The notes under the pieces were generated by a model. That model saw nothing but the letters and a program-made list of their open reading frames with translations, had not been told where the DNA came from and did not search any database. From Pseudozobellia thermophila (GTDB lineage Bacteria; Bacteroidota; Bacteroidia; Flavobacteriales; Flavobacteriaceae), in NCBI RefSeq assembly GCF_900141855.1, contig NZ_FQYU01000001.1:95402-159401 (forward strand): 64,000 nucleotides of DNA, written 5' to 3'. How positions within the stretch are numbered: position 1 is the stretch's first letter; each line of letters opens with the position of its first letter. Both the position numbers and the translations under genes were made by a program. Positions 44,920-64,000 of the stretch are shown here, piece by piece.

Positions 44920-44970
44920 ACAATTAAATCTTTATAAGGTGGATTTAAGTAAAATGGATTGGATTACTAA

Positions 44971-45477: not shown

Positions 45478-45685
45478 TAAAAGGAAAACAAAACACTATT
45501 CCCTGCAGGGGTTTAGTGCAGGAAAAAATGGCGTATTGGGTGCTCCCGAATGGCATTTGCCTAAAAACATTGAAATGGATAAGGGTGCAGAACTGTGGGA
45601 AATTTTAAACGATGAATCGGAAATCTTAAGAGGTCGGATAGTCGATATATATGATTCTAAAACCTTCATAACAATAATCAATTAA
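45458..45685 (+). CDS. Hypothetical small protein (75 aa)
   Basis: ORF overlapping the previous stop by 20 bp. Confidence 0.35.
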   Translation: MMKIWLNKRKTKHYSLQGFSAGKNGVLGAPEWHLPKNIEMDKGAELWEILNDESEILRGRIVDIYDSKTFITIIN

Positions 45686-45687
45686 AA

Positions 45688-46140
45688 ATGAAGTATAGAT
45701 TTGGCTCATATGTAGTTTACAAAGAAATGGATTGTTATTTAATCTCCAGAAAAGAATGGAGAATAGTATCCAAGGATATTAAGAGTCAAAAACTAGGGTT
45801 TAAAGCCTATGAGGCTGGTTTCCCTTATTATAAAAAAATCGATAAGACCGACATACAATCAGGTTATTTTGTTCGTACAAAAGCAAAATACAAAGATTTC
45901 ACCTTTGAATTATTTCAAAATGAGGCATTGAAAAATGATTATAAAGTACGATTAAAATTGAACAACCTTGACTTTGATGCCTACGATTATTTTGGGTTTC
46001 CTTACCGAAATGATGATGCCAGTATTGAAGTCAATGAGGAAGAATTGGAAGAAATTTGGGAAGAGCGCAAACCCCTAGCTCGGTTCCCGTTCAAAACAGA
46101 AAAAATAAAGTTTATAAAAAAAGAAGGGGAGTTTTTGTAA
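45688..46140 (+). CDS. Hypothetical protein (150 aa)
   Basis: ORF only. Confidence 0.5.
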   Translation: MKYRFGSYVVYKEMDCYLISRKEWRIVSKDIKSQKLGFKAYEAGFPYYKKIDKTDIQSGYFVRTKAKYKDFTFELFQNEALKNDYKVRLKLNNLDFDAYDYFGFPYRNDDASIEVNEEELEEIWEERKPLARFPFKTEKIKFIKKEGEFL

Positions 46141-46287
46141 TGTCCTCATCAAGGTTTTTCATATTTAATACTAGTATATCAACATTGCAACCCTGTACGT
46201 TTAAAATGTATGGCCCGAATTGGTCGTTAGTTCCAAAAAAATCAGCGCTAAGGAATACAAGGCTAAGAGCCTGTCTAAAATGGCCTT

Positions 46288-46554
46288 ATGACTAAAAACA
46301 TGAAATCCAAAAGAAACATAGAACCCATAATAACTTACTCTATTGCCATAATTTTAATCGGGTATCTTCTTCTGAATTACGGCTCGTTTCACATAGATGA
46401 AGACTACCCTTCATCATGGAAGGCACAATTGATACACATAGTCTCTAAATTTCTTTTAAATGATACAGCCGGGCGCATGGTAGGCCAAATAGTCCTTTCG
46501 CTATTGGGTATCGTTTGCTGCTTTAAAATTTACAAAGTCATAAAAGCTAAATAA
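46288..46554 (+). CDS. Small two-TM membrane protein, paralog 1
   Basis: IEPIITYSIAIILIGYLL...LSLLGIVCCFKIYKVIKAK; paralogous to the next ORF. Confidence 0.45.
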   Translation: MTKNMKSKRNIEPIITYSIAIILIGYLLLNYGSFHIDEDYPSSWKAQLIHIVSKFLLNDTAGRMVGQIVLSLLGIVCCFKIYKVIKAK

Positions 46555-46564
46555 TTGCCTAGGC

Positions 46565-46816
46565 ATGAGACCGAAAAGAGATATAGAACCGATCATAGCT
46601 TACTCTATAGCAATAATGTTAATAGTGTATTTGCTTGCCAGCTATGACACCTTTTCCGTTGATGAAAACCGCCCTCCTCATGGAAAATGGATTGTTGTTA
46701 TATATAAGTTTCTTTTAAATCATGAGTTTGGCAGTATTATCGCCAAAGGAGTCCTATTGTTGTTGGGCATCTATTGTTGCCGTCAACTATACAACGCTTT
46801 TAAAACTAAACAATAG
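46565..46816 (+). CDS. Small two-TM membrane protein, paralog 2
   Basis: IEPIIAYSIAIMLIVYLL...LLLLGIYCCRQLYNAFKTKQ. Confidence 0.45.
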   Translation: MRPKRDIEPIIAYSIAIMLIVYLLASYDTFSVDENRPPHGKWIVVIYKFLLNHEFGSIIAKGVLLLLGIYCCRQLYNAFKTKQ

Positions 46817-46951
46817 TCTGATATGGTGTTCCCATAATAACCAGAGAGGCTCCTGATTTTTGAGATAATTTAGGAGGAGCTATGTAGTAGTCCCTTCCAA
46901 TGGGATGAAATTAGAATCATTTAATATGGTAAGATTTAAAAAGTAATTTTT

Positions 46952-47206
46952 ATGAACTGGCATAACGCATTAAAAGATATATATCGAAAACTTGAAGCTT
47001 CTGGATATAAAGGAATCAAGGAGGATATTCATGAAGGTCAATTGAGTGGTGGAACTGGTGGGGAATTTTTTTCAATAGTTCTAACTAAATTAATAGAAAT
47101 CAAAAAAAATCAACCCATTGTCTATTGCTTGCTAAAAAAAGAAGTAGATGAATTTATTGCTTATGCTAAATCAATTAATTACTTGAACTCTGATTTTAAG
47201 ATTTAA
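46952..47206 (+). CDS. Hypothetical small protein (84 aa)
   Basis: ORF only. Confidence 0.4.
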   Translation: MNWHNALKDIYRKLEASGYKGIKEDIHEGQLSGGTGGEFFSIVLTKLIEIKKNQPIVYCLLKKEVDEFIAYAKSINYLNSDFKI

Positions 47207-47329
47207 TTTTTATGAAAGAGTGCATCCCTGCGGTGAAAAATTAGCAATAGGAAAAATTGGCCTTCGGCAGCGCAGGCGTCACAGCTAAAACACTGTCCCC
47301 GCTTGTGATTAATACTTTTAATAATATCA

Positions 47330-47731
47330 ATGGGCTATCTAAAAGACTATAATAGAAATAAAGACGAAATTCTTCATTCTTTTCAAGACTTAATCGAAAA
47401 GGAAGATGATTCATTTTCAGAACTTGGGTTTAATTTTTCAAAATGTGGGTTTGGTGATGCAAGAAGTCAAGACGACCATATAGAATTTATCTGGAAAAAA
47501 GAAAAAAGAGAACTCAGTGTTTGCTTTTGGATCCCTTTTTGGAAGAACTACAAAATTGACGAGAACTTTATGGTAACCTATAGTCTAACTAATGATATGG
47601 GTAAAAAGCATCCATTAATTTCTAAGGCTATTGAATTCAATAAATTACGCGGGGAAAATATTAGAGCCAAGATAAGCACACTATTCAAACATATTGCGGA
47701 AATCATCAATTCAAAAAATATAAATTTATAA
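47330..47731 (+). CDS. Hypothetical protein (133 aa)
   Basis: ORF only. Confidence 0.5.
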   Translation: MGYLKDYNRNKDEILHSFQDLIEKEDDSFSELGFNFSKCGFGDARSQDDHIEFIWKKEKRELSVCFWIPFWKNYKIDENFMVTYSLTNDMGKKHPLISKAIEFNKLRGENIRAKISTLFKHIAEIINSKNINL

Positions 47732-48010: not shown

Positions 48011-48221
48011 CTCATTACAAACACAATAACTTCATTTAAAAAAATCTAAGATTCATTACATTTCATCGAAATTTTTGTAGTATTTTTCGCTTTTTAACTT
48101 AAATTTAACTAGTTAAGAATACGAATCATTGTACCGATTATTAGTTCCCCTTCTTATGTGTTGTACACTTGGTTTTTCCCAAAGTATCAACTTTGACCAA
48201 TTGGGCAAGGAGAAATGGCTC
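48011..48221 (+). repeat. Direct repeat copy B: the functional promoter and 5' end of the OMP gene
   Basis: See copy A at 42306..42517. Confidence 0.7.
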
Positions 48222-50588
48222 AGATACAACGGCGGTGTGTCGGCCAATGCCGTCTATTACGACGGTACCGCCAACCGACAGGAGCTCACCTATTACCTCA
48301 CCGGAAGCTTAAACTTCAACATTGCCGGGGTGTACAACGTTCCGCTATCGTTTACCTATTCGAACCAAGAGTTCAATTTTCCCAACCCCTTTAACTTTAA
48401 TCGCTTGAGCCTGCATCCATCCTACAAATGGGCTACCGCACATATCGGCGACGTAAGCATGACCTTTTCGCCCTACACCCTCGCCGGTCACCAATTTACG
48501 GGCGGCGGTTTTGACCTGAATCCGGAAGGGAAATTTCAAATAAGCGCCATGTACGGCCACTTTTTAAAGGCCACCGAATACAACGAGGAACACCCCGAGG
48601 CCCTTACCGCCTACAAACGCATGGGCTATGGCATAAAGACCGCCTATGATTTCGATTTTATGAAACTGGGACTCATTCTCTTTAAGGCCCATGACGAAGA
48701 GAACTCATTGGAAAATCCGTTTCCCGTGGAGCTCGGACTCTCACCCAAAGACAATGCCGTGCTCTCCTTCGAATCGGAATTCCGGCTTTTCGAAAAGGCC
48801 AGTATACACATAGAATACGCCATATCGGGCGTTACCGAGGACACGAGGCCGACCGAAGCCCCTTCGTCTCCCGGGCTGCTGTCCTTCCTTCTAAAAGAAA
48901 ACATAAGCACCCAATACTACAAGGCCCTGAACGCATCGTTAGACTACCCCGCGGGCAACGGAACCTTGGGACTAGGGTATGAACGCATCGACCCCGAGTA
49001 CAAGACCCTGGGTGCCTATTATTTCAACAACGACCTCGAAAACATCACGGTAAACGCGAGCCAGTCGGTTTTCGACAACAAACTCAACCTCAGCGTAAAC
49101 GCCGGCCTGCAGCGCGATAACCTGAACAAGGCCAAATCATCGGACCAACAGCGCATCGTAAGTGCCATCAACGCCAATTACACGGCCTCCGACCGTTTGG
49201 GCTTCAATGCATCCTACAGCAACTTTCAGTCCTACACCAACATTCGCGACCAGTTCGATTACATCAACCAAGTAGGGGCCTACGACAATATAGACACGCT
49301 GAACTATCGCCAGATTTCACAAAATGCCAACTTGGGCATCAACTACATCCTCAAAAAAACAGAGACCAAACAGCACAGCACCAACCTTAACCTGGTCTAT
49401 CAAAACAGCACCAACCAACAGGAAGGCGAAACCATAGAAGGCGGGGAAAACTCCTTCTACAACGGTATGGCGGGCTATACCCTGGGCTACCCCAAACAGG
49501 CCCTCAACATCTCCTTGGCCGCCAACGTTTCGTACAATACCGTGGCCGAGGACGACAACATGACCCTTGGCCCCACCCTATCCATCGGCAAGCAGTTTTT
49601 CGACAAGCAACTGCGCACCAACTTTTCAAGTTCGTACAATACGAGCTACGCCAACGGGGAACAGCAGAACAACATCCTTAACTTTAGGTTGGGCAGTAAC
49701 TATACGCTGTACAAAAAACACAACCTCAGCCTTAATTTTCTGATGCTTTTCAGGAATTCGGAACTCAATACGGGGCGCGACCTGACCATTACCTTCGGCT
49801 ACAGCTATGCCTTTGACAACTTTAAGCTCGACCTTGATTCCCATAGGCGCAGTCCCAACGAACGCGACCCCCGCAACAGGGAAAGCACGTTGAGCTTCCG
49901 CTACCGCAATGTATCGTACAGCGGCACGATACCCCAACTGAACGAGCAGCTGACCAACGTGTACGAGAGTCCGCAGTTCGCCGACATCCCCCAATTCAAG
50001 AAAGACGAGCTCAAAATCCTTTTGGCCACCGTCAAAGAGCAAAAGCGGGAGGAAAAATACAAGGAGCAGGCCCTTATTTTTCTTGAGGAGCTCTACGCCT
50101 TCGACGATTTTAAAACCATTTACGACGAGGCCCTGTACAACGTGGTCATGGCCATCAAAGACGACATGAAGAAAGTGGACATGGCCCTGGAAAAACTCTT
50201 CGTCGCCAAAAAACTGGAAGCCGACGAGCACCCCCTGAACGGAAAGGGTCCCGAAAACTATACGGAAAAGGACAAAACCCTGGTGCCGGAGTACGAAGCC
50301 CTCCTAAAAGAGCGGGAGACCCGTTTGCGAAAATTGGTAGGACATAGGTGGATGGAAACCCAGTTCGCCGCCTTTACCTCCAAGGAAAAGATAGCGAAAG
50401 GAATAGGCTTTTTACTGGAGTTCAAGAAAAAACAGGCCCTAAAATCCTTTGAGCTTTATGAAAAAACCGAAAACCAGGAAAAACTGGAATACTACCTCGA
50501 AAACGAAATCATCGATTTCTACTATAAGAAGTCGCTGAAAACGGTAAACCCCGAACTGTTCGAACTGAGGTATATCAATAAATTGTAG
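48129..50588 (+). CDS. Large outer-membrane beta-barrel-like protein (~570 aa, aromatic/Asn/Ser/Thr/Tyr-rich) with a ~230-aa C-terminal helical Lys/Glu-rich domain; unknown family
   Basis: TTG start with signal peptide (M)YRLLVPLLMCCTLGFSQS; alternating beta-strand character with frequent aromatic-Asn/Ser residues; C-terminal ...KEQKREEKYKEQALIFLEELYAFDDFKTIYDEALYNVVMAIKDDMKK is helical. Confidence 0.7.
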   Translation: MYRLLVPLLMCCTLGFSQSINFDQLGKEKWLRYNGGVSANAVYYDGTANRQELTYYLTGSLNFNIAGVYNVPLSFTYSNQEFNFPNPFNFNRLSLHPSYKWATAHIGDVSMTFSPYTLAGHQFTGGGFDLNPEGKFQISAMYGHFLKATEYNEEHPEALTAYKRMGYGIKTAYDFDFMKLGLILFKAHDEENSLENPFPVELGLSPKDNAVLSFESEFRLFEKASIHIEYAISGVTEDTRPTEAPSSPGLLSFLLKENISTQYYKALNASLDYPAGNGTLGLGYERIDPEYKTLGAYYFNNDLENITVNASQSVFDNKLNLSVNAGLQRDNLNKAKSSDQQRIVSAINANYTASDRLGFNASYSNFQSYTNIRDQFDYINQVGAYDNIDTLNYRQISQNANLGINYILKKTETKQHSTNLNLVYQNSTNQQEGETIEGGENSFYNGMAGYTLGYPKQALNISLAANVSYNTVAEDDNMTLGPTLSIGKQFFDKQLRTNFSSSYNTSYANGEQQNNILNFRLGSNYTLYKKHNLSLNFLMLFRNSELNTGRDLTITFGYSYAFDNFKLDLDSHRRSPNERDPRNRESTLSFRYRNVSYSGTIPQLNEQLTNVYESPQFADIPQFKKDELKILLATVKEQKREEKYKEQALIFLEELYAFDDFKTIYDEALYNVVMAIKDDMKKVDMALEKLFVAKKLEADEHPLNGKGPENYTEKDKTLVPEYEALLKERETRLRKLVGHRWMETQFAAFTSKEKIAKGIGFLLEFKKKQALKSFELYEKTENQEKLEYYLENEIIDFYYKKSLKTVNPELFELRYINKL

Positions 50589-50836
50589 ACAATGAACAAT
50601 TAGCAATTAGCAATAAACAATGAGCAATGAACAGTTAACAGTAGGCAGTGGGCAGTGGGCAGTGAACAGTTAGCAATTAGCAATTAGCAATGAACAATTA
50701 ACAGTGAACAGTTGGCAGTGGGCAGTGGACAATTGACAATTAACAGTGAACAGTTAGCAATGAGCAATGAACAGTAGGCAGTTGGCTGTGGGCAGTGGGC
50801 AGTGAACAGTTGGCAGTGGGCAGTTGGCAGCTATTA
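50589..50836. repeat. Tract of about 35 tandem degenerate heptanucleotide repeats (unit RCARTKR, e.g. GCAGTGG / GCAATTA / ACAGTGA)
   Basis: acaatga acaatta gcaatta gcaataa acaatga gcaatga acagtta acagtag gcagtgg gcagtgg gcagtga ... gcagttg gcagcta; starts on the base after the OMP stop codon and runs into the 5' end of the next long ORF. Confidence 0.9.
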
Positions 50837-50869
50837 GTTCTAAGAAAATTAAAAAATATCGGACCGTTG

Positions 50870-53800
50870 ATGACCAACAGCGTTATAAAACATATGAAAA
50901 ACAACGATTTAGCATTGCAGCATCCCTTTACAAACCCGGTAAATGGCCGTGGCGCATGGCGCAAGACCTTCGGTAAGGGTCAGGCTGTGCTTTTATACAT
51001 GCTTCTTTTCTTCCTATGCTTCCTGGGTAGCCTCGCGGTAAACGCCCAGTCCTTTCCCGTTCAGGTGATTCCTCAGGTAACCCCGCCGGCGCCGATCTAT
51101 TTCTCCGATTATGCCGATGCGAGTACCTTGGGCAGTCCGCTCCGCGTGCAGATCATCTTGAACGATTTTGAGATCGCCAACCGCGAGATACGCCTGCGTA
51201 CCTATTTTGAGGGCGGGGGTATCAGCTTTCATAGTAACGATGTGGTGCTAGGTGCCGAAAAACTCTATTTGGAAGGCGGCGTGCCCTTGGTACTCACCAA
51301 CGTACAATTGGCCCCGTACTTTAGGTTCGAGAACATTAGCGGAATATCGCCCAACGTATACGGAAAAGCCATTCCCGAAGGCGCCTACTCCTTTTGTTTT
51401 GAGGTGTACGATGTACTGACGGGCAACCGCCTGTCGCAAAAAAGCTGTGCCACCAGCGTTGTCTTTCAAAACGAACCGCCCTTTCTGGTCGCACCGAGAA
51501 ACAAGTCCAACCTAGCCGAAACCAATCCGCAGAACATCGTCTTCCAATGGACGCCACGCCACATCAACGTGAGCAATGTGGAATACGAACTGAGCATCGT
51601 GGAGATCTGGGATACCCAGGTAGACCCGCAACAGGCCTTTTTAAGCTCTCCGCCCGTTTTTCAGGTCACGACCACCGCCACCACCTACGTATACGGTCCG
51701 GCCGACCCGCTTTTTCTTTCGGGAAAAAACTACGCCTGGCGCGTACAGGCCAAGGCCAAGCAAGGGGTCGAGGAAATCGGACTCTTCAAAAACCAGGGCT
51801 ATAGTGAAATCTATTCCTTCAGCTATGCCGGCACCTGCGACCTGCCCATCGGTATCAACCACGAAGTAAAGGGCAGTACCAATGCCAATATCTTTTGGGA
51901 CGATTTCGCTACCGATGTGCCCGAATATACGGTGCGGTACCGCCAAAAGAACATAGAGGGAGCGGAGTGGTTTATGAACAAGACCACTTCGAACCAAACC
52001 ACCCTGTGGGACCTTAAGGCAGGCACCACCTACGAATACCAGGTGCAAAAACAATGCTCGGTGACCGGAAGCGATTGGAGCATGGCCAAGGAGTTTACCA
52101 CCTTTATCGCCGACGACGAAGCCAGTGTCTACGACTGTGGCATAACGCCCGATTTTGATGTTTCGAACAAAGAGCCCCTGCCCAGCATCTCCTCCGGTGA
52201 AAAGTTTATGGCGGGCGACTTCCCCATAAATATTTTAAAGGTAAGCGGTAAAAATGGCCGTTTTACGGGTAAAGGATACGTGACCATCCCTTATTTGAAC
52301 AGCATTCGAGTGGGCGTAGAGTTTACCAATGTGCTTATCAATACCGACAAGAAATTGGCCGAAGGTACCGTAGTCACCACCTACGACCCGAGTTTAAAGA
52401 ACATCTTGGACATAAACGAATCAGTCGATACGGTAGAAGATGCCGTTGATGCCGTGGGGGAATTTTTTGAAGGAGATAACGACCTAGATGAAATTCGCGT
52501 CAACTGGGCCCTTAGATCTAAGAAAGATATAAAAATAAAAGGTGGTAAAGTCGTGATCACCAACCCCAATACGGGGGCAACCAAATCGGAACCCTTAGGC
52601 GACGATATGGTGATTACCGACAGTGAAGGGAAAACCTATTACGTAGATGCGGAAGGAAAAATAACCGAAGGGGGATCACTTGCTACTGGCGGGGCCATAA
52701 GCCCGGATACCGTAGAAGGCGTCTCGAACAACGGCCAAATAGAATCCTTAACGGCAGAAGGTGTTCTGGTCACCTTTAACGAAGCGGGTACGTATGCCAT
52801 GGATATAATGCCCAAGGGCGAAATAGGAAAGCTCAAGGACGAGTACACAGTTATAAAGGATGCGGAAGGCAACGACTATGTGCTTACCCACCATGCCGTA
52901 AAGAATAGGGCAAGCACCAAAATAAAGGCCAAAATCGACATTAAAAACGATGCCTACGATGTATCGGATGTCATCTTCAAGACCAAGCATGGGGATAGTA
53001 TCCCCACGACCTTCAAGGGCAATCAGGCCACCTTGACCTTGAAAGGCAGGTTTACCTTCGAAAACGAGGTAATCTATGCGGTCGTACCCGACAAGGACGA
53101 CAGTACAAAACAACTTACGGCCGGGGCGTTTACCCTTTGGCATCTATCCGAACGCACCGTAAAAGTGGCCCTGGTTTCCGTTAACGGCGCCTCTTTGGGT
53201 AATATCGAATCCAACGTTTCCGACATCTTCAAAAAAGCGGTGGCCCGTATTGAGTTCGGCGAGAGCCTTTCCCTTTCCGTCACCAAGGACGAACTAGGAA
53301 GCAACCAAAAATTGGATGTAGGCGAAAGCGCATGGGCCGCGGCCTATAACGAGGAACAGAAGATGCTCGTAAACAAGGTGAAGCAATTGCCCAACTATAA
53401 GACCGACACCTATTATGTCTTGGTCTTCAACGACATAGAACCTTCAGAATCCATCGGTGGATTTATGCCCCTACAGCGGCAAATGGGCTTTGTATTTGGC
53501 GGTGACCCAGATGATGGTGAAGATAAGAACGGGGACAAGAGCAAGACCTTGGCCCACGAAATAGGCCATGGTATTTTCGCCCTTCAGCACCCCTTCGCTG
53601 AATATGACATGCCTGAAAATCAAACCGATTGGCTCATGGATTATGGCAGTGGAGACCAATTGCCCCATACCCATTGGGCCCAGATCCATGACCCGGCCCT
53701 TAAATTCTACATTTTTCAAGATGAGGAGGATGGTTTATTAATACAAAACGGAATCACTCCATATCTTAACATTCATGAAAAAAATTGGGATAATTATTGT

Positions 53801-55912
53801 TTTTTGTCTCCTATTGGTACTGCAATAGATATACCGGGTGCCACCCATGTAATGTTTAATGAAGATGGGGCCGTAATTGCTTTTAAAATAGGTAATGAAA
53901 AATTTTTAGGGCTTTATAACCCGGCCAAGCAGCGTTTTATAGGATATCTCAACTCTACTTCAAAACTGATTACAAAAGAAATGAGTCTCACAGAAGACTT
54001 TAGAAAAAAATTCAATGAAGAAAAATTCACCAATATCAAATTTGCTGAAAAATCCAAAGATATTGTCGCAATTGCTAAAAAAAAGCATAAATCAAGATAT
54101 TTGGATTGTATCTATCAAGTGATATGGGAAAATTCAACAATAGGAAGTAGCTATACTGGTATATCAACCCCGCCCTTTATTCCAAATGACGGTACCATAG
54201 AGAATTTTATTTCTGGCAATCAATGTGCAAATGCTACAAGTGATGGAATAATCGATGGCCCAGGTGATGTAGTTTATTTTAAACTATTTGAGTTTGTTGA
54301 CAATGAAGAAAGAATAAAATTGATAGAGTTTTCAAATTACTTATCCGATTTATTAAAAAATAAAACCTTCGCGTTCTACGGATATGGTTTAGAAAATTAT
54401 GAAATATCCAATTCGATTAACAAAGAAGTTTTAAATTATTTAACAAACAATAAGATTTATTCCAAGGAAAAATTTGAAGAACATTTTCCCATTCAAACAT
54501 TCTCACGTGACAAAGACATAATATTTTCCACAATTGATTTAAGAAAAACAATACCAAAGGATTATAATTCGAAGGAAAGTATAGATTATGAAATACTCAA
54601 TGCGACAGGGGAAAAGCGTCCATATGAATATTCTTTCTCTGATTTGACAGTTCGACTTCAATATTTAGCCGACGACACTTTTATTAAAACGGCCATTCAT
54701 AAAATGGAAGCCGAAGGTAGAGCTGAGCCAATTTCTCAAAAAGACGGATACAACCAATACGTAGCTAAGTATGGTACTGATGCCGCGTTTATTCTATGGG
54801 CAGAATTTGCTTCCAATGCTAGCAAAGATGTTATGTCCGCTTATTTTATCCATAGAGTCACTGCTGAATATGGTGTTGCCCTCTTACAAGAAATTTCAAA
54901 AGAAGCGGCAGAAAAATTCATATGGGGAGTACTAGAGGAATCTATTCCGAATTACCTTGCAAACGAATTACTTGACGAAGATCAATTTAGTAAAGACTTC
55001 TTTCAAGATGCATTGTTAGCAGGTGTCAAAAATACAATTAGCCCCACAGGTAGAAAATTTACGGATGTTGCAATTGAGAAAGGATATGATTGTCTCATTG
55101 GACTTGATATATCAACAATTGATGGTCTTTTATTTTCAAAGTCAAAAGAAGAATTGGAAAAATACTTACTGTATGGGTCATTTGAATGTGTTTTTCCAAT
55201 GATTGCTCCCAAACTGTTTGATTATGTACTCAAAGGTAACCCGGTCGCAAAAAAAGTACACAAATATTTGACAACAAAGCTAAATATTGACCATAGTCAG
55301 ACCCCTGATTTAATGATTAAAATGTTGGGGATGGAAAAAAACTTAAAGGGGAAAAGCGAACATTATAGAAGTGTTTTAAAAGAAATCATTACTACAGAAT
55401 CTGGCGCCCAAGCAATTGATGTTTTAATTAAAGCAAATTTTGACTATACCACGTTATCGGTCTCCAATTTAAGAAGACTAAAAAATGTCGTAGAAAAATG
55501 GGGAAACAGTAATGAAATGGTGGAATTATTCAAAAGCACAACCGATGTAAACAGAATGCTGATTTACATGGAAAAAATGGTGAAATCACCACAAGAATAC
55601 AAAGAGCTATTAAAAAAAATAGGCGAAAATGAGATGTTTTCAAAAACAATAACGATAAATGGAAAAACAGTGAATATAGAAACCTATTTCAATAGTTTTC
55701 ATGACGGGTATACCTATTATCACAAACAAGAGAATAACATACATTACTATGCGAAAATGAACGGGGCCGACGGTTTGCGTATCATAATAGACCTAACCAA
55801 TAGTGCTATTCCTGTGATAAAAAATATATCGTATGGCACAGCAGCTAACGTTCTGAAAGATTTCATATCAAATTCGATAGAATATAAGTTGGACATTTCA
55901 GATGATAACTAG
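50870..55912 (+). CDS. Giant secreted multidomain protein (about 1680 aa): FN3-like domains, a central zincin-like HEIGH metallopeptidase module, and a low-GC C-terminal third of unknown function
   Basis: The ORF is open from 50795, but its first 25 codons are the heptamer repeat. Candidate starts are M at 50870, 50894 or 50999, all before the signal-like segment LLYMLLFFLCFLGSLAVNAQS. FN3-like blocks (e.g. ...IVFQWTPRH...YAWRVQAKA..., ...TVRYRQKN...YEYQVQKQ). LAHEIGHGIFALQHPF at 53555..53569. GC drops from about 50% to about 28% near 53700. Confidence 0.8.
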   Translation: MTNSVIKHMKNNDLALQHPFTNPVNGRGAWRKTFGKGQAVLLYMLLFFLCFLGSLAVNAQSFPVQVIPQVTPPAPIYFSDYADASTLGSPLRVQIILNDFEIANREIRLRTYFEGGGISFHSNDVVLGAEKLYLEGGVPLVLTNVQLAPYFRFENISGISPNVYGKAIPEGAYSFCFEVYDVLTGNRLSQKSCATSVVFQNEPPFLVAPRNKSNLAETNPQNIVFQWTPRHINVSNVEYELSIVEIWDTQVDPQQAFLSSPPVFQVTTTATTYVYGPADPLFLSGKNYAWRVQAKAKQGVEEIGLFKNQGYSEIYSFSYAGTCDLPIGINHEVKGSTNANIFWDDFATDVPEYTVRYRQKNIEGAEWFMNKTTSNQTTLWDLKAGTTYEYQVQKQCSVTGSDWSMAKEFTTFIADDEASVYDCGITPDFDVSNKEPLPSISSGEKFMAGDFPINILKVSGKNGRFTGKGYVTIPYLNSIRVGVEFTNVLINTDKKLAEGTVVTTYDPSLKNILDINESVDTVEDAVDAVGEFFEGDNDLDEIRVNWALRSKKDIKIKGGKVVITNPNTGATKSEPLGDDMVITDSEGKTYYVDAEGKITEGGSLATGGAISPDTVEGVSNNGQIESLTAEGVLVTFNEAGTYAMDIMPKGEIGKLKDEYTVIKDAEGNDYVLTHHAVKNRASTKIKAKIDIKNDAYDVSDVIFKTKHGDSIPTTFKGNQATLTLKGRFTFENEVIYAVVPDKDDSTKQLTAGAFTLWHLSERTVKVALVSVNGASLGNIESNVSDIFKKAVARIEFGESLSLSVTKDELGSNQKLDVGESAWAAAYNEEQKMLVNKVKQLPNYKTDTYYVLVFNDIEPSESIGGFMPLQRQMGFVFGGDPDDGEDKNGDKSKTLAHEIGHGIFALQHPFAEYDMPENQTDWLMDYGSGDQLPHTHWAQIHDPALKFYIFQDEEDGLLIQNGITPYLNIHEKNWDNYCFLSPIGTAIDIPGATHVMFNEDGAVIAFKIGNEKFLGLYNPAKQRFIGYLNSTSKLITKEMSLTEDFRKKFNEEKFTNIKFAEKSKDIVAIAKKKHKSRYLDCIYQVIWENSTIGSSYTGISTPPFIPNDGTIENFISGNQCANATSDGIIDGPGDVVYFKLFEFVDNEERIKLIEFSNYLSDLLKNKTFAFYGYGLENYEISNSINKEVLNYLTNNKIYSKEKFEEHFPIQTFSRDKDIIFSTIDLRKTIPKDYNSKESIDYEILNATGEKRPYEYSFSDLTVRLQYLADDTFIKTAIHKMEAEGRAEPISQKDGYNQYVAKYGTDAAFILWAEFASNASKDVMSAYFIHRVTAEYGVALLQEISKEAAEKFIWGVLEESIPNYLANELLDEDQFSKDFFQDALLAGVKNTISPTGRKFTDVAIEKGYDCLIGLDISTIDGLLFSKSKEELEKYLLYGSFECVFPMIAPKLFDYVLKGNPVAKKVHKYLTTKLNIDHSQTPDLMIKMLGMEKNLKGKSEHYRSVLKEIITTESGAQAIDVLIKANFDYTTLSVSNLRRLKNVVEKWGNSNEMVELFKSTTDVNRMLIYMEKMVKSPQEYKELLKKIGENEMFSKTITINGKTVNIETYFNSFHDGYTYYHKQENNIHYYAKMNGADGLRIIIDLTNSAIPVIKNISYGTAANVLKDFISNSIEYKLDISDDN

Positions 55913-55960
55913 CGAAACATATAAACATATAATTAATGGCGTGCGGAACACCCCTCTAGC

Positions 55961-56089
55961 GCAAGCATCACGCTCGTACCATGTTCAAAACACCCCTGTA
56001 AAGTAGTAGGGTACTACTTTACCGTCCCCCCAAGGGGACAATAACCCCTACTTCGGCAGGCTCGGCGCAAGGCTTCGAAGGGCGGGGGA
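55961..56089. repeat. Hairpin-rich repeat element, copy 2 (longer; nested palindromes)
   Basis: TCACGCTCGTACC ... GTAAAGTAGTA-GGG-TACTACTTTAC (11-bp arms) ... GTCCCC-CCCAA-GGGGAC ... CCCCTACTTCGGCAGGCTCGGCGCAAGGCTTCGAAGGGCGGGGG; the 3' part is nearly identical to 47767..47811. Confidence 0.6.
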
Positions 56090-56222
56090 TGTAGGATCGA
56101 ACCGATGCAGATAGAAGGGAAAAATAGAAAGGTGAATAAAACAAAAAGAAGAAAAAATAAAAAATGATTGAGTCTCCCTTAGTTCCCTGGGGAGTACATA
56201 AACACGAAAAATTTCACGTAGT

Positions 56223-59200
56223 ATGAAAAACAACTACCTGTACATAGTTTCACTCCTATGCTTCGCTGCCGTCGTGTTCGGCCAGTCGGCATACGCCCAT
56301 GGCAACCCCTGGGCACATACAAGCTATTCCCTCCTGACCAGCAATATCGGGTCAAAAAGCTTATCGACACCCATAACGGAAAAAGATTCGACCTCGGCAA
56401 GTCCAAAGGACAGTGTCAAACTCAAAAAGGCAGATGCCCGACAGTTGGCCCACTTACAACAATTGGCGGCCCTTCGCGGCTCGGTATTGACACCCGCCGC
56501 AACGGCTCCTACCCCCCCTAAAACAGAAGAAGCAGCCGTTGAGGAAGAAAAGGTGTTCCGTTCCTTCCCTTCTTTGGACCAACAGTTGGCCGAAAGCCAA
56601 GACTTTAACGTGTCCTTCGCCAATCGCGCACCTGAGTTCAACGAGGCCTACCTGGCCGAAAACTTCCAGCAAAACCCTGCCGTAGAAAAACTGATCAATA
56701 ATGCCAAAGGCGCCCTCGATGCCGTCAAGGAGCTGGGCAACTTTGTAGACATCATAACCGGCAAAGACCTATTGGAACTCCCGGTGGGGCTCAAAAAGAC
56801 CGACCAGACCTCGAACAACTCCGTAGAGCTCGCCATTACCGAGGTAAAGTTCACCCCCGGCTATGCCCTACTCAAGGTATGGGCCCGATTGATCATACCC
56901 GAAAAGGGCGAAGTTAAAAACGAAAAAGATCGTGGCATCGAACGCGAACTCTTTTTTGGGGCCGAAAACGTAAAACTATCTTACGATGGCGGCCTATCGG
57001 GCGATATGAAACTGGTGCTGTTGGGCAACCAGGCCATCCCCATACAAGGCGACAACTGGCTATTGACCCTAAAAGGGGGAATAGACCTCAAAAAAAACAC
57101 CTTTGGCGACCAATCGTATATCGAGTTCGATTGCTCCGACCTAAAAGGCATCAGCCTTGAGGGCGACCTGCGGGTGTCGCGAAACGTACTCCTGCCCATT
57201 GACGAGAACGGTAATTACGTCTGTTCCGACAAAGGGGATAACCAAAATATAAAAGACAATGAAAAAGCCATAGAAAACAATTGCTACGTCGGCACCTCGT
57301 TCAGCGTAAAGGCCGAAGGTTGGAACGACCTTTTGGTCAATGTCGACCTACCGCGTTTTGAGGTGGTGGGCCTCAAGGGATGGGGCTTCAACCTTACCAA
57401 CGTAGTACTTGATCTAAGCGATAGTAGAAACGCGCCCAAACTCGACCTTCCCGAGGAATACGACCAAATCTACCCCGGTGAGGACAAAAAACTATGGCGG
57501 GGCTTCTATGCCGAAGAAGTAAGCGTTATGCTGCCCGAGGGCATCAATAGCACCAAGAAATCGAACGGCAGGGTCGAATTCGGGGCCAAAAACTTGGTAT
57601 TGGACAGTCAGGGTGTCTCGGGCACCTTCTATGGGGAAAACGTTCTAAAAACCGGCGATGGCGCCGCTGGCAAATGGGCCTTTACCATAGACGAGGTAAG
57701 CATTTCCCTTTCCCGAAATTCATTGACCGACGGATCCATCGGCGGAGACATTGCCGTTCCCATCTTCGAAGAGCCCATGGACTACGAAGGATACATAGCC
57801 CAAAACGGATATGGTCTGGAAGTGGGACTCAACAGCAACTACAAAACCCCCGTGTTCTTGGGTGAAATGCAACTCGAACGCAACTCCAGCGTAGCCATTG
57901 ATGTAAAAGAGGGCCATGTTTACCCCTCGGCCAACCTAACAGGAAAACTCTCCGTTATCGGTGAAATAGGCCAAAAAGAGGGGGATGCATCGCCCAGCGC
58001 CGAAGAAGCCGAAGCGAGCGGAAAGGGGTTCAGCTTTCCCGGAATCGAGTTTCAAGAACTAAAATTGGAGACCGAGCCCGGTAAAAAAACCATAAGTGCC
58101 GAGAGTTTCGGTTTTACCGGCGAAATGAAGCTGATGAACTTTCCCGCCTCGGTCGAAAACCTCGAATTGGTCACCCCCAAGGATCAGGTCGGCCTTTCCT
58201 TTGACCTAAAGATCAACCTTGATGGCGAAGGATCCCATGCCACAACCAGCATGGACATTATGGGCAAGTTGGAAGACGGTGCCAAAATCCATAAATGGAA
58301 ATTTGAAAAAGTATCGGTCGATGGTATTGAGATCGATTACACCAAAGCCAATTTTCAAATTACCGGCGAACTGGATGTTATGGAAGACGACCCTGTCTAT
58401 GGCAACGGGTTTAAGGGGAATCTCACCGCCACTTTCAAAAAATTAAAGTTCAGCGCCGAAGGCAATGCCATTTTTGGGAATAAGGATTTCAGGTATTGGA
58501 CCGTGGACATCGCCACCAACTCCATACAAAACGAGGGCACAACGAAATTGCCCATTAAGGCTTTCGTCGGTGGTCTATCGTACAAAATGCAAAAGGTCAG
58601 CGGCAACAGTTCCGGCTTCGAACCGGGAACGGCCGTTTATAAACCCGATGCCAATACTGGGCTAGGGGTACGTGCCGGGGTAAAAATCACCACCGAAAAT
58701 GCCGACGCCTTCTCCTGTAAAGCCTATCTCGAAATGGAGTTCAATGCACATGGCGGACTCAACCGGATCGGATTTATGGGCGAAGGGGCCATCATGGGCA
58801 AGGACGAAACAAGTCCGGACGACCTAAAGAAATCGGCAGAGGTCGCCGAAAAAGTCGATCAATCGCTACAAGACAACTCTGCAGCTGCCCAAAATAAACA
58901 ATACGGAAACTTTATGGCCGCGGCCAAGGAATCGATTCCCGTACACGATGTAGCTGCTTCGGGCAAGGTCGGTGTGTACGTGGGTATTGAAAAAGATTTT
59001 GTCAACGACACCTTTGACGGCGAATTTGAACTCTATATGGATCTCGAGGCCATCAAAGGCGGAGGAGCCAATAATTTGGCCGGCTATGCCAAAATACACA
59101 CCGGCCCCACTGACTGGTATATGTATATCGGTACGCCCGACCAGCGAATAGACCTGTTGTTCAACTCCGGCGTTCAGGTAAGGGTCGGCGGCTACTTTAT

Positions 59201-61235
59201 GACCGGAACAAAATTACCGGCCCCAGGCGACATCAGCCCCCACCCAATAGTTACCAAAATTTTGGGCGATGATATATTGAGGGGCGAACGCAAGGACAAC
59301 CAACTTACTGCAGGAAAAGGCTTCGCCTTCGGTATGAATTTCGGCTACGGCTATGGCTTCGATTGGGGCCTATTCTACGCCATGGTAGAAATCGGTGCCG
59401 GTTTCGATGTCATGCATGCCTATTACCCCAATGCCAAATGTGTGGGCAGACCAGGACCCGTTGGCAACAACGGCTGGTATAGCATGGGCCAGGTATACGC
59501 CTATTTGTACGGAGAGTTCGGTGTTAAGGTAGACCTCGCCTTTATCAAAGGGAATTTTACGATTGCCGAGGCGGGCGTTGCTGCCGCGCTAAGAGGCCAA
59601 TTTCCAAACCCGGTCTATATTCAAGGGTATGTAGGTATGTATTACAAAATCTTGGGCGGACTTGTATCGGGAAGAATGAGGATGAAGGTAGAATTAGGGG
59701 AGGAATGCGAACTGGAGAATATTAACGACACCATTGGCGTTCCGATGATCTCCGATGTAACACCTAGGGATGGAGACGATGATGTTTCAGTATTTGCGGC
59801 TCCTCAAGCCGTTTTCAATTACGCCGCCAACTCGGACTTTACCGTTGATCTAGAAGAGGGGGTCAGGACCTTTAAGTTGCAGTTGAAAAACTTTACCGTC
59901 ACTTCCGAAGGCCAAGAAATACTAGGAAGTTTAGAGTGGAACGACACCAACGATGCCGTTACGTTCAAACCGGAACGCCCCTTACCTTCGGAAAAAGAGG
60001 TAAAAGTGGTGGTCGAGGTCAGTTTTGACGAAAAGATTGATGGCACCTATAAAACCATGACCGAGGAAGGCAAGCCTGTCTTGGAAAAACAGGAGATTGT
60101 CTTTGTTACCGATAAGGCGCCGGACCATATTGTATGGGAAAACGTGGCTTATTTGTACCCTGTGAAGGAGCAGCGAAATTTCTATCCAAAGGAATACAAG
60201 ACGGGTTATGTCAAAATGATCCAGCCCCAGGACAATCTCTTTAACAAAGGCTTTGAAATAAGGGCCGAGTTTGTATCCAGGGCTTCAGGGCAGGGTGTCC
60301 GAACCCCTGTTAGTTATGACAAAAACAAGGGCATGGTCTTTTTTGATATTCCTGATTTGATGCTTGATGCCGAATACGACCTGAACTTAATGGTCTTTCC
60401 TCCGGGTCAGGAAATTCCCACGGAAATCGTCGTCGAGGAAACCGAATTGTTGGCAGACGAAGAAGGAGGGGACACTACGTGGTACGACCCCGATACCGAA
60501 ACCCAAAGTACAAAAAACGTATCGGCCAGCGCAGTAGTGGCCAACAAAAAAGCATCAAGTGTTACCATTTCGAATGCCGCCCCAAAATCTATTTTTGATT
60601 ATCCCTTCAAAACAAGTAGACATGAGACATTTGGGGATAAAGTCAAGAATTTAGAGCCCACAAACTATCTCCTTAATGCATCCATATATGCCGATGTCCA
60701 TTCATTATCAATTCAGGTTACAGATTATGAATATCTTGATATACTAGAAGTAATTGGGAATTCTTACACTCAAACAAAACCTTTAGTTTATGCTGAAGCG
60801 GTCTTAAATGACAGTTATTATAAGAAGAAAATCGGGCCTTTGTTGTATGATGATGATATATATCCACTAGGCGGGAATATAGAATTAGATAGAGACACAA
60901 CAATCCTAGGGGTTCCCCCTATTAGATCTTTTGTTATCGGTGACGAGTATATGGCAAACCTAGCCTCGAACCCAAGCTCATTCTGGGTTAAAAATAGAAT
61001 ACCACATATCTATAATTTGCCTTACCAATACAAAGCCGATATGGTCAATTTGAGAGAGAAGTTTATAGAAATTTATTCCGAAGGAGAAGGTGATAAAGAA
61101 ACATACAACAACTTCAAGTATTTGATGACGAGTTTTCCTCCTTTACCCTTGGGGACTTATAATGCCAAATTAATTTATAGAACGCCTGGACAATTATATC
61201 AAAAAGGATATCCCATAAAATACAAAAATCAATAG
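56223..61235 (+). CDS. Giant secreted protein (1670 aa) with an Ig-like (Big/SbsA-type) segment and a low-GC C-terminal ~220 aa; unknown function
   Basis: Signal peptide MKNNYLYIVSLLCFAAVVFGQ; Ig-like block VTPRDGDDDVSVFAAPQAVFNY...VTFKPERPLPSEKEVKVVV; GC falls to about 35% from about 60580 to the stop. Confidence 0.8.
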   Translation: MKNNYLYIVSLLCFAAVVFGQSAYAHGNPWAHTSYSLLTSNIGSKSLSTPITEKDSTSASPKDSVKLKKADARQLAHLQQLAALRGSVLTPAATAPTPPKTEEAAVEEEKVFRSFPSLDQQLAESQDFNVSFANRAPEFNEAYLAENFQQNPAVEKLINNAKGALDAVKELGNFVDIITGKDLLELPVGLKKTDQTSNNSVELAITEVKFTPGYALLKVWARLIIPEKGEVKNEKDRGIERELFFGAENVKLSYDGGLSGDMKLVLLGNQAIPIQGDNWLLTLKGGIDLKKNTFGDQSYIEFDCSDLKGISLEGDLRVSRNVLLPIDENGNYVCSDKGDNQNIKDNEKAIENNCYVGTSFSVKAEGWNDLLVNVDLPRFEVVGLKGWGFNLTNVVLDLSDSRNAPKLDLPEEYDQIYPGEDKKLWRGFYAEEVSVMLPEGINSTKKSNGRVEFGAKNLVLDSQGVSGTFYGENVLKTGDGAAGKWAFTIDEVSISLSRNSLTDGSIGGDIAVPIFEEPMDYEGYIAQNGYGLEVGLNSNYKTPVFLGEMQLERNSSVAIDVKEGHVYPSANLTGKLSVIGEIGQKEGDASPSAEEAEASGKGFSFPGIEFQELKLETEPGKKTISAESFGFTGEMKLMNFPASVENLELVTPKDQVGLSFDLKINLDGEGSHATTSMDIMGKLEDGAKIHKWKFEKVSVDGIEIDYTKANFQITGELDVMEDDPVYGNGFKGNLTATFKKLKFSAEGNAIFGNKDFRYWTVDIATNSIQNEGTTKLPIKAFVGGLSYKMQKVSGNSSGFEPGTAVYKPDANTGLGVRAGVKITTENADAFSCKAYLEMEFNAHGGLNRIGFMGEGAIMGKDETSPDDLKKSAEVAEKVDQSLQDNSAAAQNKQYGNFMAAAKESIPVHDVAASGKVGVYVGIEKDFVNDTFDGEFELYMDLEAIKGGGANNLAGYAKIHTGPTDWYMYIGTPDQRIDLLFNSGVQVRVGGYFMTGTKLPAPGDISPHPIVTKILGDDILRGERKDNQLTAGKGFAFGMNFGYGYGFDWGLFYAMVEIGAGFDVMHAYYPNAKCVGRPGPVGNNGWYSMGQVYAYLYGEFGVKVDLAFIKGNFTIAEAGVAAALRGQFPNPVYIQGYVGMYYKILGGLVSGRMRMKVELGEECELENINDTIGVPMISDVTPRDGDDDVSVFAAPQAVFNYAANSDFTVDLEEGVRTFKLQLKNFTVTSEGQEILGSLEWNDTNDAVTFKPERPLPSEKEVKVVVEVSFDEKIDGTYKTMTEEGKPVLEKQEIVFVTDKAPDHIVWENVAYLYPVKEQRNFYPKEYKTGYVKMIQPQDNLFNKGFEIRAEFVSRASGQGVRTPVSYDKNKGMVFFDIPDLMLDAEYDLNLMVFPPGQEIPTEIVVEETELLADEEGGDTTWYDPDTETQSTKNVSASAVVANKKASSVTISNAAPKSIFDYPFKTSRHETFGDKVKNLEPTNYLLNASIYADVHSLSIQVTDYEYLDILEVIGNSYTQTKPLVYAEAVLNDSYYKKKIGPLLYDDDIYPLGGNIELDRDTTILGVPPIRSFVIGDEYMANLASNPSSFWVKNRIPHIYNLPYQYKADMVNLREKFIEIYSEGEGDKETYNNFKYLMTSFPPLPLGTYNAKLIYRTPGQLYQKGYPIKYKNQ

Positions 61236-61236
61236 T

Positions 61237-63300
61237 TTGAAAAGAATTTCTTTTATCATATACATGCTCATTAACCTTTGCTGGGGCCAAGACTCAACCT
61301 CGGTTCAACTTATTTCAAGGTCGCTTCCCGACAAGGTGATGCTCAGGTGGGCCGTAGACCAACCTTTGGGCTGGAAAATGGGCAACGAATACGGCTTTTA
61401 CGTAGAACGGTCTACCATTTCACGCAACGGGGAGGCCGTAGTTCCCATAGAACGAAAAATGCTCTTTCAAGAACCCCTAAAACCAAGACCTCTGGAGGAA
61501 TGGGAAACATTGGCCAACCAAGACCAGAACATAGCTGTCCTGGCCCAGGCCCTTTTTGGGGAAACTTTTGAAACCCTAGCTCCAAAAACCGGGGTTTTGG
61601 GAAAAATCAACGCCGTTAACGACGAATTGGAACAGCGCTTTACCTTTGCCCTTTTAGCTGCCGAACAAAGCTTTGAAGGAGCCAAACTAGCGGGTTGGGG
61701 GTTAGTGGATACCTCTGTGGTTCCCGGAGAAGCATACGTTTATAAAGTTACGGTGGCCCTGCCCGAAGATGCAAACATAAAAATCAAGGAAGCATCAACA
61801 TATGCAGGAACCCATCTTTACGAAAAATTGCCCCAACCTATTGGCTTGGCAGGTATTTTTAAAGACTCCCATGTGTTACTAAGCTGGAACTATAACCTCT
61901 TAAGCAGTATTTATACGAGTTATATCGTCGAAAAATCGGCCGACGGCCTCAACTTTGAAGAACAGAACCAACAACCGATTTTTAATGCATCACAACATGC
62001 AAATGACAATAACATTGCCCTTTATTACACCGATTCCATACCCAACGACAAGACCTTTTACTACCGCGTAAAAGGTAAAAACGCATTCGGCGAAATTGGG
62101 CCTGCCAGTCCTATAGTACAAGGGAAGGGCAAAAAATCATTGGAATATGTACCGAGAATTTATAGAAAAGAAATGCCCACCGACCATAAAGCCATTCTTT
62201 ATTGGGAATTTAAAGAAGAGGGAAGCGAACTGATTACCAAATTTCAACTAAACCGGTCAAACACCAATGACGGCCCTTTCAGAACGGTAATAGACAATAT
62301 TCCACCTACAAGCAGAAGCATCTCCTACGATAAATTGGACCGTATTAATTACTTCACGGTGTCGGCAGTGGATAAAAACGGAACCAAAAGTGAATCGCTT
62401 CCAGTCATGGTACAACCTGTAGATTCCGTACCTCCTGCAGCACCTAAAGGTTTGATTGGAACAATGGACACTACGGGCATCGTAAGGCTCTCTTGGGCCA
62501 AAAATCTGGAAGAGGACTTAAAAGGATATAGGATCTTTAGGTCTAACAATCCGAATACAGAATTCAGTGAAATCACAACAGAAACACACGACTCGGAAAA
62601 TTACAACGACTCACTATCCATTCGTAATCTGAACACCAAGGTGTACTACAAACTACAGGCAGAGGACCAAAGGTACAACAGGTCGGGATTCTCCCAAATG
62701 TTGGTGGTCAACAAACCCGATTTAATTCCTCCTTCACCCCCTGTACTTACAAAATACGGGATTTCAGAAGAAGGAATCCGAATCAGCTGGGTGCCAAGCA
62801 GTAGTCCGGATGTCTCATCCCATCAGGTCTTTAGAAAGATCATAGGCAAACAGACGGATTTATGGGAAAAGATCCATGAAACCGCAACAAAAAGCGACAC
62901 TACCTTTTTAGATTCCCGGGAATTGGAACAAAATCGGTATTCCTACATCGTAGTGGCAAAGGACTCTTCGGGACTGGAGAGTACTCCTTCGGCTCCTATT
63001 ACCGTTGCGTGGAGCGGTAAAACGATCAAGGACGACGATCTTAAATTTTCCGGTACGGCAAACAGGGAATTACGCTTTATACACCTTTCTTGGAAAATAA
63101 AAGACCAAGAGGTTCTGGAATATCGATTGTACAGAGGAACAACGGTAAACGACCTTAAACTATTTAAAACATTCAATAAAGATGTAACTAGTTATAACGA
63201 TATCGATTTGAAGATAAACTCCGAATATACGTATGGGTTACAATTCGTTTTGATATCTGGTGCTCTCTCCCCCGTCAAGAAATTGGAATTAAAATATTAA
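61237..63300 (+). CDS. Secreted protein with multiple fibronectin type III domains (687 aa)
   Basis: TTG start 2 nt after the previous stop, (M)KRISFIIYMLINLCWGQD; repeated FN3 signatures (LRWAV...YGFYVERS; LSWAKNLEEDLKGYRIFRS; ISWVPSSSPDVSSHQVFRK; YYRVKGKNAFGE). Confidence 0.75.
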   Translation: MKRISFIIYMLINLCWGQDSTSVQLISRSLPDKVMLRWAVDQPLGWKMGNEYGFYVERSTISRNGEAVVPIERKMLFQEPLKPRPLEEWETLANQDQNIAVLAQALFGETFETLAPKTGVLGKINAVNDELEQRFTFALLAAEQSFEGAKLAGWGLVDTSVVPGEAYVYKVTVALPEDANIKIKEASTYAGTHLYEKLPQPIGLAGIFKDSHVLLSWNYNLLSSIYTSYIVEKSADGLNFEEQNQQPIFNASQHANDNNIALYYTDSIPNDKTFYYRVKGKNAFGEIGPASPIVQGKGKKSLEYVPRIYRKEMPTDHKAILYWEFKEEGSELITKFQLNRSNTNDGPFRTVIDNIPPTSRSISYDKLDRINYFTVSAVDKNGTKSESLPVMVQPVDSVPPAAPKGLIGTMDTTGIVRLSWAKNLEEDLKGYRIFRSNNPNTEFSEITTETHDSENYNDSLSIRNLNTKVYYKLQAEDQRYNRSGFSQMLVVNKPDLIPPSPPVLTKYGISEEGIRISWVPSSSPDVSSHQVFRKIIGKQTDLWEKIHETATKSDTTFLDSRELEQNRYSYIVVAKDSSGLESTPSAPITVAWSGKTIKDDDLKFSGTANRELRFIHLSWKIKDQEVLEYRLYRGTTVNDLKLFKTFNKDVTSYNDIDLKINSEYTYGLQFVLISGALSPVKKLELKY

Positions 63301-63302
63301 GT

Positions 63303-64000
63303 ATGCCTAATTTAATAAAATATTTCATAATTGGATTCATTATGCTTACGACCAAGGCTTTATATGGTCAGTATAAATACTTGATAAGTTTTAAAGGTAA
63401 CATTACCTACGACGATTATGTTAGTCCTTCTATCAATTATTATTCTTATGATATCTATATAAATGGAAACAATAGAATTTATCGACTTGCGCCAGAGTCC
63501 AGTACAATCAGTTTAGAAGAAACCATTGTCTTTAGCTCCTCTACACCTATAAGCTCTATCAATATCAGGGTAACCATTAATAACAGTGCAGCCACACCTA
63601 ATGGAGCAGCTTCTTGTTCTTATCCAGCTAACCAGTATGATGTAGATTTAAATATTGATAGTTGTCTTTATTCTCCCATATTTAATTCAGGTTGCTTAAC
63701 CGTTAATTGGGATTATTATTCCTTTAGTGAAATTCCAAATTTTCAAAATTACAATTTTTACGACCCTATTAATAATTCACTCGGAATTTGCGAAAGACTA
63801 ACAATTCAAGCCACTCAAACAAATTGTCCAGCCATTTTTCCATATGCTCTTGAGGCAAGTATAAATGACCCGTTATTTTCAGATTCATTTGAGCTTGCTC
63901 CTTTTAGTACAAATCGATTTAGTTATTCAACTAATATAAATAATATTCCGGGTTTAAATCCTAGTGATTTATTGTATATAAGAGCAAGATATACATCCAA
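63303..64000 (+). CDS. Secreted hypothetical protein, 5' part (runs off the window end); very low GC
   Basis: ATG 3 nt after the previous stop; MPNLIKYFIIGFIMLTTKALYGQ signal peptide; open frame to the window end by hand translation; Asn/Ser/Tyr-rich. Confidence 0.5.
   Translation, partial: MPNLIKYFIIGFIMLTTKALYGQYKYLISFKGNITYDDYVSPSINYYSYDIYINGNNRIYRLAPESSTISLEETIVFSSSTPISSINIRVTINNSAATPNGAASCSYPANQYDVDLNIDSCLYSPIFNSGCLTVNWDYYSFSEIPNFQNYNFYDPINNSLGICERLTIQATQTNCPAIFPYALEASINDPLFSDSFELAPFSTNRFSYSTNINNIPGLNPSDLLYIRARYTS

Follow-up and report, generated by a model that had tools for sequence, protein, structure and literature searches.

A probable TANFOR-type polymorphic toxin cluster with a large predicted outer-membrane barrel and conserved envelope partners in Pseudozobellia thermophila

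We analysed a 64,000-nt stretch of the Pseudozobellia thermophila genome (contig NZ_FQYU01000001.1, positions 95,402 to 159,401; hereafter the window), which carries a run of five genes, g1 to g5, beginning with a predicted outer-membrane beta-barrel protein (g1) and including a candidate polymorphic toxin (g2). The source species was confirmed by the g1 product, which is 100% identical to a P. thermophila protein. ORF calling in the window recovered the five-gene layout described in the initial annotation, with five co-oriented open reading frames (ORFs) all on the forward strand; the gaps of 2 and 3 nt given there for g3-g4 and g4-g5 proved to be 1 nt and 2 nt, respectively. Signal peptides of the cluster products were judged by eye from the N-termini. 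Scans against Pfam and NCBIfam recognised Fn3 as the sole family, in g2 and g4, with zero family matches for g1, g3 and g5, and sequence searches of the PDB, for which g1, g2, g4 and a profile of g3 served as queries, returned nothing beyond Fn3 matches. No type IX secretion system (T9SS) C-terminal domain (CTD), whether type A (Por_Secre_tail) or type B (CHU_C), was found in g1-g4 with Pfam at E<=0.1, and these four genes showed no Rhs or PAAR signature. The features of the region are collected in Table 1.

Table 1. Features of the cluster, its spacers and the upstream array, in positions of the window.
Feature	Position	Strand	Size and start	Description
Low-GC small-ORF array (orphan immunity-like genes)	43038-47731	+		GC 0.35-0.38; upstream of g1; no Pfam hits
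g1	48129-50588	+	819 aa, TTG start	Predicted outer-membrane beta-barrel (~26 strands) with C-terminal helical domain of ~230 aa
Heptamer tract	50590-50830	+	~240 nt	Between g1 and g2
g2	50795-55912	+	1705 aa (ORF)	Public proteins begin at 50870 (1680 aa) and 50894 (1672 aa); both start variants in public collection
TANFOR-like N-terminal domain of g2	51059-51457	+		47% identical to Aquimarina L064 over its TIGR02542-matching stretch
Fn3 domain of g2	51875-52081	+		Pfam fn3, E 7.8e-7, residues 361-429 of the 1705-aa ORF
Zincin-type motif of g2, HEIGHGIFALQH	53555-53590	+		Candidate toxin-releasing peptidase
Variable low-GC C-terminal module of g2 (putative toxin end)	53978-55909	+		Divergence from Zobellia uliginosa; GC step
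Hairpins of g2-g3 spacer	55998-56022; 56019-56044	+		First with 11-nt perfect stem
g3	56223-61235	+	1670 aa	Beta-rich conserved envelope protein
g4	61237-63300	+	687 aa, TTG start	Multi-Fn3 protein; constant g3 partner
g5	63303-64000	+	N-terminal 232 aa only, ATG start; leaves window	Putative SprB-repeat surface protein, T9SS-exported (assigned by position and family)

The TANFOR-domain polymorphic toxins of Bacteroidetes were defined by Jana, Salomon and Bosis (2020; PMC7073777), whose supplement lists Cellulophaga and Aquimarina proteins in which TANFOR (residues ~27-160) is followed by an Fn3-like domain (~300-375), with a PKD lipoprotein encoded upstream, and lists no Pseudozobellia, Zobellia or Arenibacter. 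Comparison of g2 with 50 relatives revealed a modular protein, in which residues ~65-560 are common to all and residues 560-1050 are common to the long forms. The N-terminus, read by eye, is signal-peptide-like, and residues 59-559 are 44% identical to the g2 protein of Aquimarina locus L064, which itself matches TIGR02542 (E 5e-9, residues 43-175). An Fn3/Pur_ac_phosph_N domain lies ~300 residues into g2, matching the TANFOR-then-Fn3 layout listed in PMC7073777. Because its N-terminal region is homologous to TANFOR-bearing proteins and the two share this layout, g2 is, judging from its sequence, a divergent and previously unlisted member of the TANFOR polymorphic toxin class. The same study found SprB-repeat/CTD, Fn3 and PKD genes enriched beside TANFOR toxins (PMC7073777); the window presents such a neighbourhood, with the Fn3 protein g4 and with g5 in the position of a family bearing SprB repeats and a CTD (C0), and the PKD lipoprotein is found only in other clades. 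In Maribacter locus L054, g2 is split, and the ORF after it belongs to the published BaCT toxin-family list (PMC7073777 supplement).

The g2 protein of Zobellia uliginosa is 88% identical to that of the window up to residue 1061 and unrelated beyond, and a fall in GC within the g2 ORF from 0.50 to 0.30, at ~53.7-53.85 kb, coincides with this divergence point. Relatives of g2 have mosaic middle regions and, beyond residue ~1061, are mosaic or unrelated to one another, with extreme C-termini that match the Pfam families Toxin-deaminase (E 1e-37), Endonuclea_NS_2 (E 8e-17) or HNH, and small genes in the immunity position follow the toxin-ended relatives. A word-indexed search with positions 53945-55909 (655 aa, low-complexity and lysine/glutamate-rich) returned no match, not even to the full protein present in the collection, and was taken as an artefact whose null result is not trusted; an exhaustive HMMER search recovered 101 relatives of the window g2 C-terminal module, of which the four long proteins examined with Pfam proved g2-like. 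The initial annotation had ascribed variable C-terminal modules to the giant exoproteins collectively, a description that applies to g2 only, g3 and g4 being conserved end to end. A fused immunity domain in the last 150 residues of g2 was considered and rejected, since the small proteins matching this segment have graded lengths and a common C-terminus; from their sequences they resemble orphan toxin ends or gene calls cut short.

The HExxH motif of g2 falls within residues 560-1050, is invariant among the long forms and stands ~130 residues before the point where homologues part. The surrounding motif, AHE[IL]GHG..L.HPF...WLMDY, is kept with minor substitutions only in all 18 relatives that have this module. 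Short g2 forms (~750 aa; L046 21827-24127 and L064 12312-14558) are without the zincin module and carry a helical region; weak similarity of this region to BAR and alpha-xenorhabdolysin subunit A (E 0.002) may point to a membrane-active part.

Several ORFs of the low-GC array upstream of g1 have counterparts beside g2 in other genomes. ORF 44971-45477 shares 73% full-length identity with a gene that overlaps the stop of g2 in Z. uliginosa (L003 9141-9647) and 55% identity with the corresponding gene in Cellulophaga L008, and the g2 proteins of Z. uliginosa and Cellulophaga L008 have their toxin end in common. Two further ORFs, 45458-45685 and 45688-46140, find counterparts in two neighbouring genes of the array that lies downstream of g2 in Aquimarina ERC-38 (L084) and in a gene situated between g2 and g3 in Arenibacter L024. 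Because its ORFs match immunity-position genes of g2 relatives, the array is best described, by homology, as an orphan immunity-type array, which bears out the nearby immunity-like array of the initial annotation. The array also holds a duplicated pair of tandem ORFs, 46288-46554 (88 aa) and 46565-46816 (83 aa), with 50% mutual identity and a weak match to the membrane-protein family DUF4064. In L084, the array downstream of g2 includes a PIN-domain gene (15239-15610) with several small unknown genes, which suggests that arrays of this type mix immunity genes with other conflict-system genes.

The distribution of the cluster was surveyed with a g3 profile against one genome per species, which yielded at least 596 loci (species). 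The best 80 were analysed by calling and clustering ORFs, with full 10-kb flanks in 53. These 80 loci derive from Flavobacteriaceae, Chitinophaga, Tenacibaculum, Aquimarina, Apibacter, Prevotellaceae metagenome-assembled genomes and Cytophagia, and share a recurring set made up of g3, g4, the SprB-repeat family C0, a PKD lipoprotein of ~450 aa (C5), the g1 barrel and g2, with strand agreement of the core genes in 370 of 371 cases. Within 10 kb, the 53 full-flank loci include g4 in 51, C0 in 52, g2 in 36, the barrel in 22 and C5 in 20; the loci without g2 are mostly cut off within the cluster. The g4 gene directly follows g3 in 71 of the 80 loci, and C0 comes after g4 in 72. Two gene orders are seen: barrel, g2, small genes, g3, g4 and C0 in the clade of the window, and g3, g4, C0, C5, (barrel) and g2 in most other loci. 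In the window's clade the PKD lipoprotein is missing and a long form of the barrel is present instead. The g3 and g4 proteins and the SprB-repeat protein with a T9SS tail are near-constant partners, and the g1 barrel and the PKD lipoprotein are frequent ones. Conservation and co-orientation across Bacteroidota support the five genes as one functional cluster, and not a chance run of secreted genes. In Flavobacterium and Tenacibaculum (L029, L038, L042, L048, L033 and L056; ~16600-24500 in each), there are two to four tandem SprB-repeat paralogues and not one, of ~390-630 aa (mostly ~430), followed by one long T9SS-tailed copy.

More than 2,700 homologues of g1 were found, 60-94% identical across Flavobacteriaceae genera, all of them unnamed or loosely labelled. 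Structure prediction of the 819-aa protein gave a barrel region of ~540 residues with ~26 strands and neither plug nor POTRA domain, followed by the C-terminal helical domain. The initial annotation had pointed to SusC/TonB-dependent receptors and to PorP/SprF as families whose homology would give this protein another identity; searches of Pfam and NCBIfam at E<=0.1 found no match of g1 to Plug, TonB_dep_Rec, CarboxypepD_reg or SusD, and at the same threshold none to PorP_SprF (PF11751), whose barrel has ~14 strands in ~300-400 aa. The TonB-dependent receptor label carried by g1 homologues was rejected, there being no family match and no plug in the model. The closest structural matches of the model are protein-translocating usher barrels, with scores that do not set them apart from other large barrels, and g1 shows no Usher family match, usher plug or N- or C-terminal usher domain. 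The cluster as a whole has no POTRA domain, no 16-strand Omp85-type barrel and no two-partner secretion (TPS) domain in an exoprotein. In line with the initial view, this outer-membrane protein is neither a TpsB nor a PorP/SprF protein.

The g3 protein matches no known family and is beta-rich, with a barrel-like look. The C0 family combines SprB repeats with a type A Por_Secre_tail, a CTD being present in 56 of its 57 complete members. The g5 gene occupies the C0 position, and its product is weakly colinear with C0 N-termini (L012: 23% over 227 aa, E 5e-5); we infer that g5 is the start of a C0-type SprB-repeat protein that would be exported by the T9SS and form a surface fibre. The earlier remark that the cluster shows no T9SS CTD, Rhs or PAAR signature holds for g1-g4 and is misleading with respect to the T9SS, since g5 appears to be a T9SS-cargo partner.

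Both spacers flanking g2 contain elements that are unique in the window. The heptamer tract between g1 and g2, which was recognised from the outset, comprises ~34 degenerate CARTDRV units (27 pattern matches vs 0 expected) with 63-70-nt higher-order periods, and enters the annotated 5' region of g2. In Maribacter polysiphoniae, a shorter heptamer tract (L054 2493-2541) likewise follows the barrel gene; such tracts occur in only 1-3 other loci and are not a general feature of the cluster. The tract could be a regulatory or slippage-prone element. The hairpin element described after g2 was likewise recovered, with its 11-nt perfect stem and a second hairpin beside it; the g2-g3 spacer gave no Rfam match. 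The hairpins sit in a GC-rich segment (55940-56110) of an otherwise AT-rich spacer, where relatives carry immunity genes, and the segment may be a terminator or a deletion scar. Further upstream, beyond the array, positions 39854-42222 hold a GNAT-like gene and a gene for an M61 glycyl aminopeptidase that includes a PDZ domain. In the Cellulophaga loci L008, L015 and L017, the M61 homologue lies directly downstream of the SprB-repeat gene, and this difference in position suggests a rearrangement of either the cluster or the array with respect to the flanking DNA.

An antagonism system of the polymorphic-toxin kind is supported, because g2 relatives combine a variable toxin C-terminus with immunity-position genes, copies of which stand in the orphan array. 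We consider it very probable that the region is a TANFOR-type toxin cluster used in antagonism. The mechanism that we favour would begin with passage of g2 to the periplasm via Sec. From there, the g1 barrel, perhaps together with the barrel-like g3, would help g2 to cross the outer membrane or to be anchored in it, no T9SS tail being used. The g5 protein would be exported by the T9SS to form a surface fibre, and g4, through its Fn3 domains, might hold g2 at the surface together with g5. On delivery to a neighbouring cell, the zincin module would cut off the C-terminal toxin, and kin would be protected by immunity proteins. Passage or anchoring by g1 is favoured because g2 is without a T9SS tail and a large barrel gene directly precedes it; the usher-like structural matches of g1 and the invariant HExxH are also cited for export. 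Even so, g1 and g3 as the export route of the toxin are a tentative proposal, to which we give somewhat less than an even chance, and identity and export route taken jointly form the best overall explanation, one that we regard as reasonably probable. A stronger version, in which g1 with a periplasmic helical domain and g3, helped by g4, would constitute an unrecognised TANFOR-dedicated outer-membrane export or display apparatus alongside a T9SS-exported SprB-type fibre, appears rather doubtful. If true, it would represent a new Bacteroidota secretion or contact-killing pathway in hundreds of species.

A number of observations weigh against the proposed toxin cluster and its export route. On the identity of g2, the window protein has no match to TIGR02542 (T_forsyth_147) at E<=10, and the homologues that do match it (L064, L057, L025 and L081, at E 5e-9 to 8e-4) all fall below the 67-bit curated cutoff; the window g2 C-terminal module, furthermore, has no Pfam family match. 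No immunity gene adjoins g2, and the 310-nt g2-g3 spacer is without a credible ORF. In loci L083 and L084 the same toxin end precedes a multi-pass membrane protein, homologous between the two (27% identity, E 1.7e-16) and 189 aa long in L084, where its gene overlaps the g2 stop, and no homologue of this membrane protein was found anywhere in the window; the cognate immunity gene of the window toxin is missing locally. As to export, the barrel stands within 10 kb in only the 22 full-flank loci already counted and is absent around g2 in Aquimarina ERC-38, so g1 is not an obligatory neighbour of g2. The g3 model has a pTM (predicted template-modelling score) of 0.45, with structural matches at TM<=0.13. 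Secretion of TANFOR proteins is, moreover, without experimental demonstration, as stated in PMC7073777.

The main rival is direct export by the T9SS, in which the TANFOR toxin would be a T9SS substrate through a non-canonical signal, as hypothesised without experimental test by Jana et al. (2020), and g1, g3 and g4 would serve as anchoring or assembly factors, as SprF, SprC and SprD do for SprB. This account draws on the T9SS cargo C0, which is the most constant neighbour of all, and on the presence of a T9SS in >95% of TANFOR genomes (PMC7073777), and it gains weight because the barrel is not always nearby. It has to contend with a g2 protein that bears neither type of CTD and a cluster that includes no PorP/SprF-like gene, and it leaves the large barrel gene directly before g2 unexplained; we judge it rather unlikely.

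Readings that dispense with a toxin fit poorly. An adhesion or gliding surface-filament operon paralogous to sprCDBF, with g3 and g4 akin to SprD and SprC and g2 a surface enzyme or adhesin whose variable end serves attachment or nutrition and not killing, could be argued by analogy from the SprB repeats of g5 relatives, from the reported placement of SprD among outer-membrane integral proteins (PMC12045153) next to the barrel-like look of g3, and from the lack of an immunity gene adjoining the window toxin. Its difficulty is that g2 relatives bear bona fide toxin domains followed by immunity-position genes, and that the CTD of C0 is of type A, not the type B of SprB, with no SprF partner, which makes it highly improbable. 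A nutrient-uptake locus built around g1 as a TonB-dependent or SusC-like receptor is effectively refuted by the family searches and the plugless model described above, and the cluster holds no glycoside hydrolases or SusD.

The TANFOR-type toxin cluster that we favour retains the antagonism system initially proposed, whose hallmarks hold, and qualifies the description of that system as undescribed, which is only partly right given that the toxin class and its T9SS-cargo neighbours have been published (PMC7073777). Relative to the literature searched, what is new is the reach of the class into this clade, the invariant zincin motif, the standing of g3 as a near-universal partner and of g1 as a frequent one, and the occurrence of the barrel in a long and a short form. 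TANFOR toxins are the main candidate for interbacterial killing that does not rely on a type VI secretion system (T6SS) in environmental and host-associated Bacteroidota. The family reaches clades missed by the curated model, every long form having the invariant zincin motif just before the swappable end, and the two unannotated partners, the 1600-aa g3 and the large barrel, may explain how the toxin leaves the cell.

Among known systems, the chaperone-usher pathways (FimD, PapC) differ from the cluster in the family, plug and terminal domains that g1 lacks. The resemblance to sprCDBF of Flavobacterium johnsoniae lies in the layout, in that a T9SS-exported SprB-repeat protein follows two large helper genes and SprD is an outer-membrane protein, whereas the SprB-repeat protein of the present cluster has a type A and not a type B CTD, no SprF/PorP gene is present and a toxin gene is included. 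The window protein and its Zobellia/Arenibacter clade depart from the published TANFOR toxins in falling below TIGR02542 detection and in being absent from the published list, and PMC7073777 reports no g1 barrel, 1600-aa g3 partner or HExxH module. They agree with TANFOR toxins in having a signal-peptide-like N-terminus, a TANFOR-homologous N-terminal domain, Fn3 and, across the family, a polymorphic toxin end followed by immunity-position genes, in lying near genes for Fn3 proteins, for SprB-repeat proteins with a T9SS CTD and (in other clades) for PKD proteins, and in their restriction to Bacteroidota. Contact-dependent inhibition (CDI) by two-partner systems (CdiB-CdiA-CdiI) is set apart by its POTRA domains, 16-strand Omp85 barrel, TPS domain and haemagglutinin repeats, none of which occurs in the window cluster, and the latter has the extra partners g3, g4 and g5 and a T9SS link. 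In both, a barrel gene lies beside a giant exoprotein with a swappable toxin, accompanied by immunity genes and orphan immunity arrays, and by analogy the cluster is probably similar to CDI in its ecological action.

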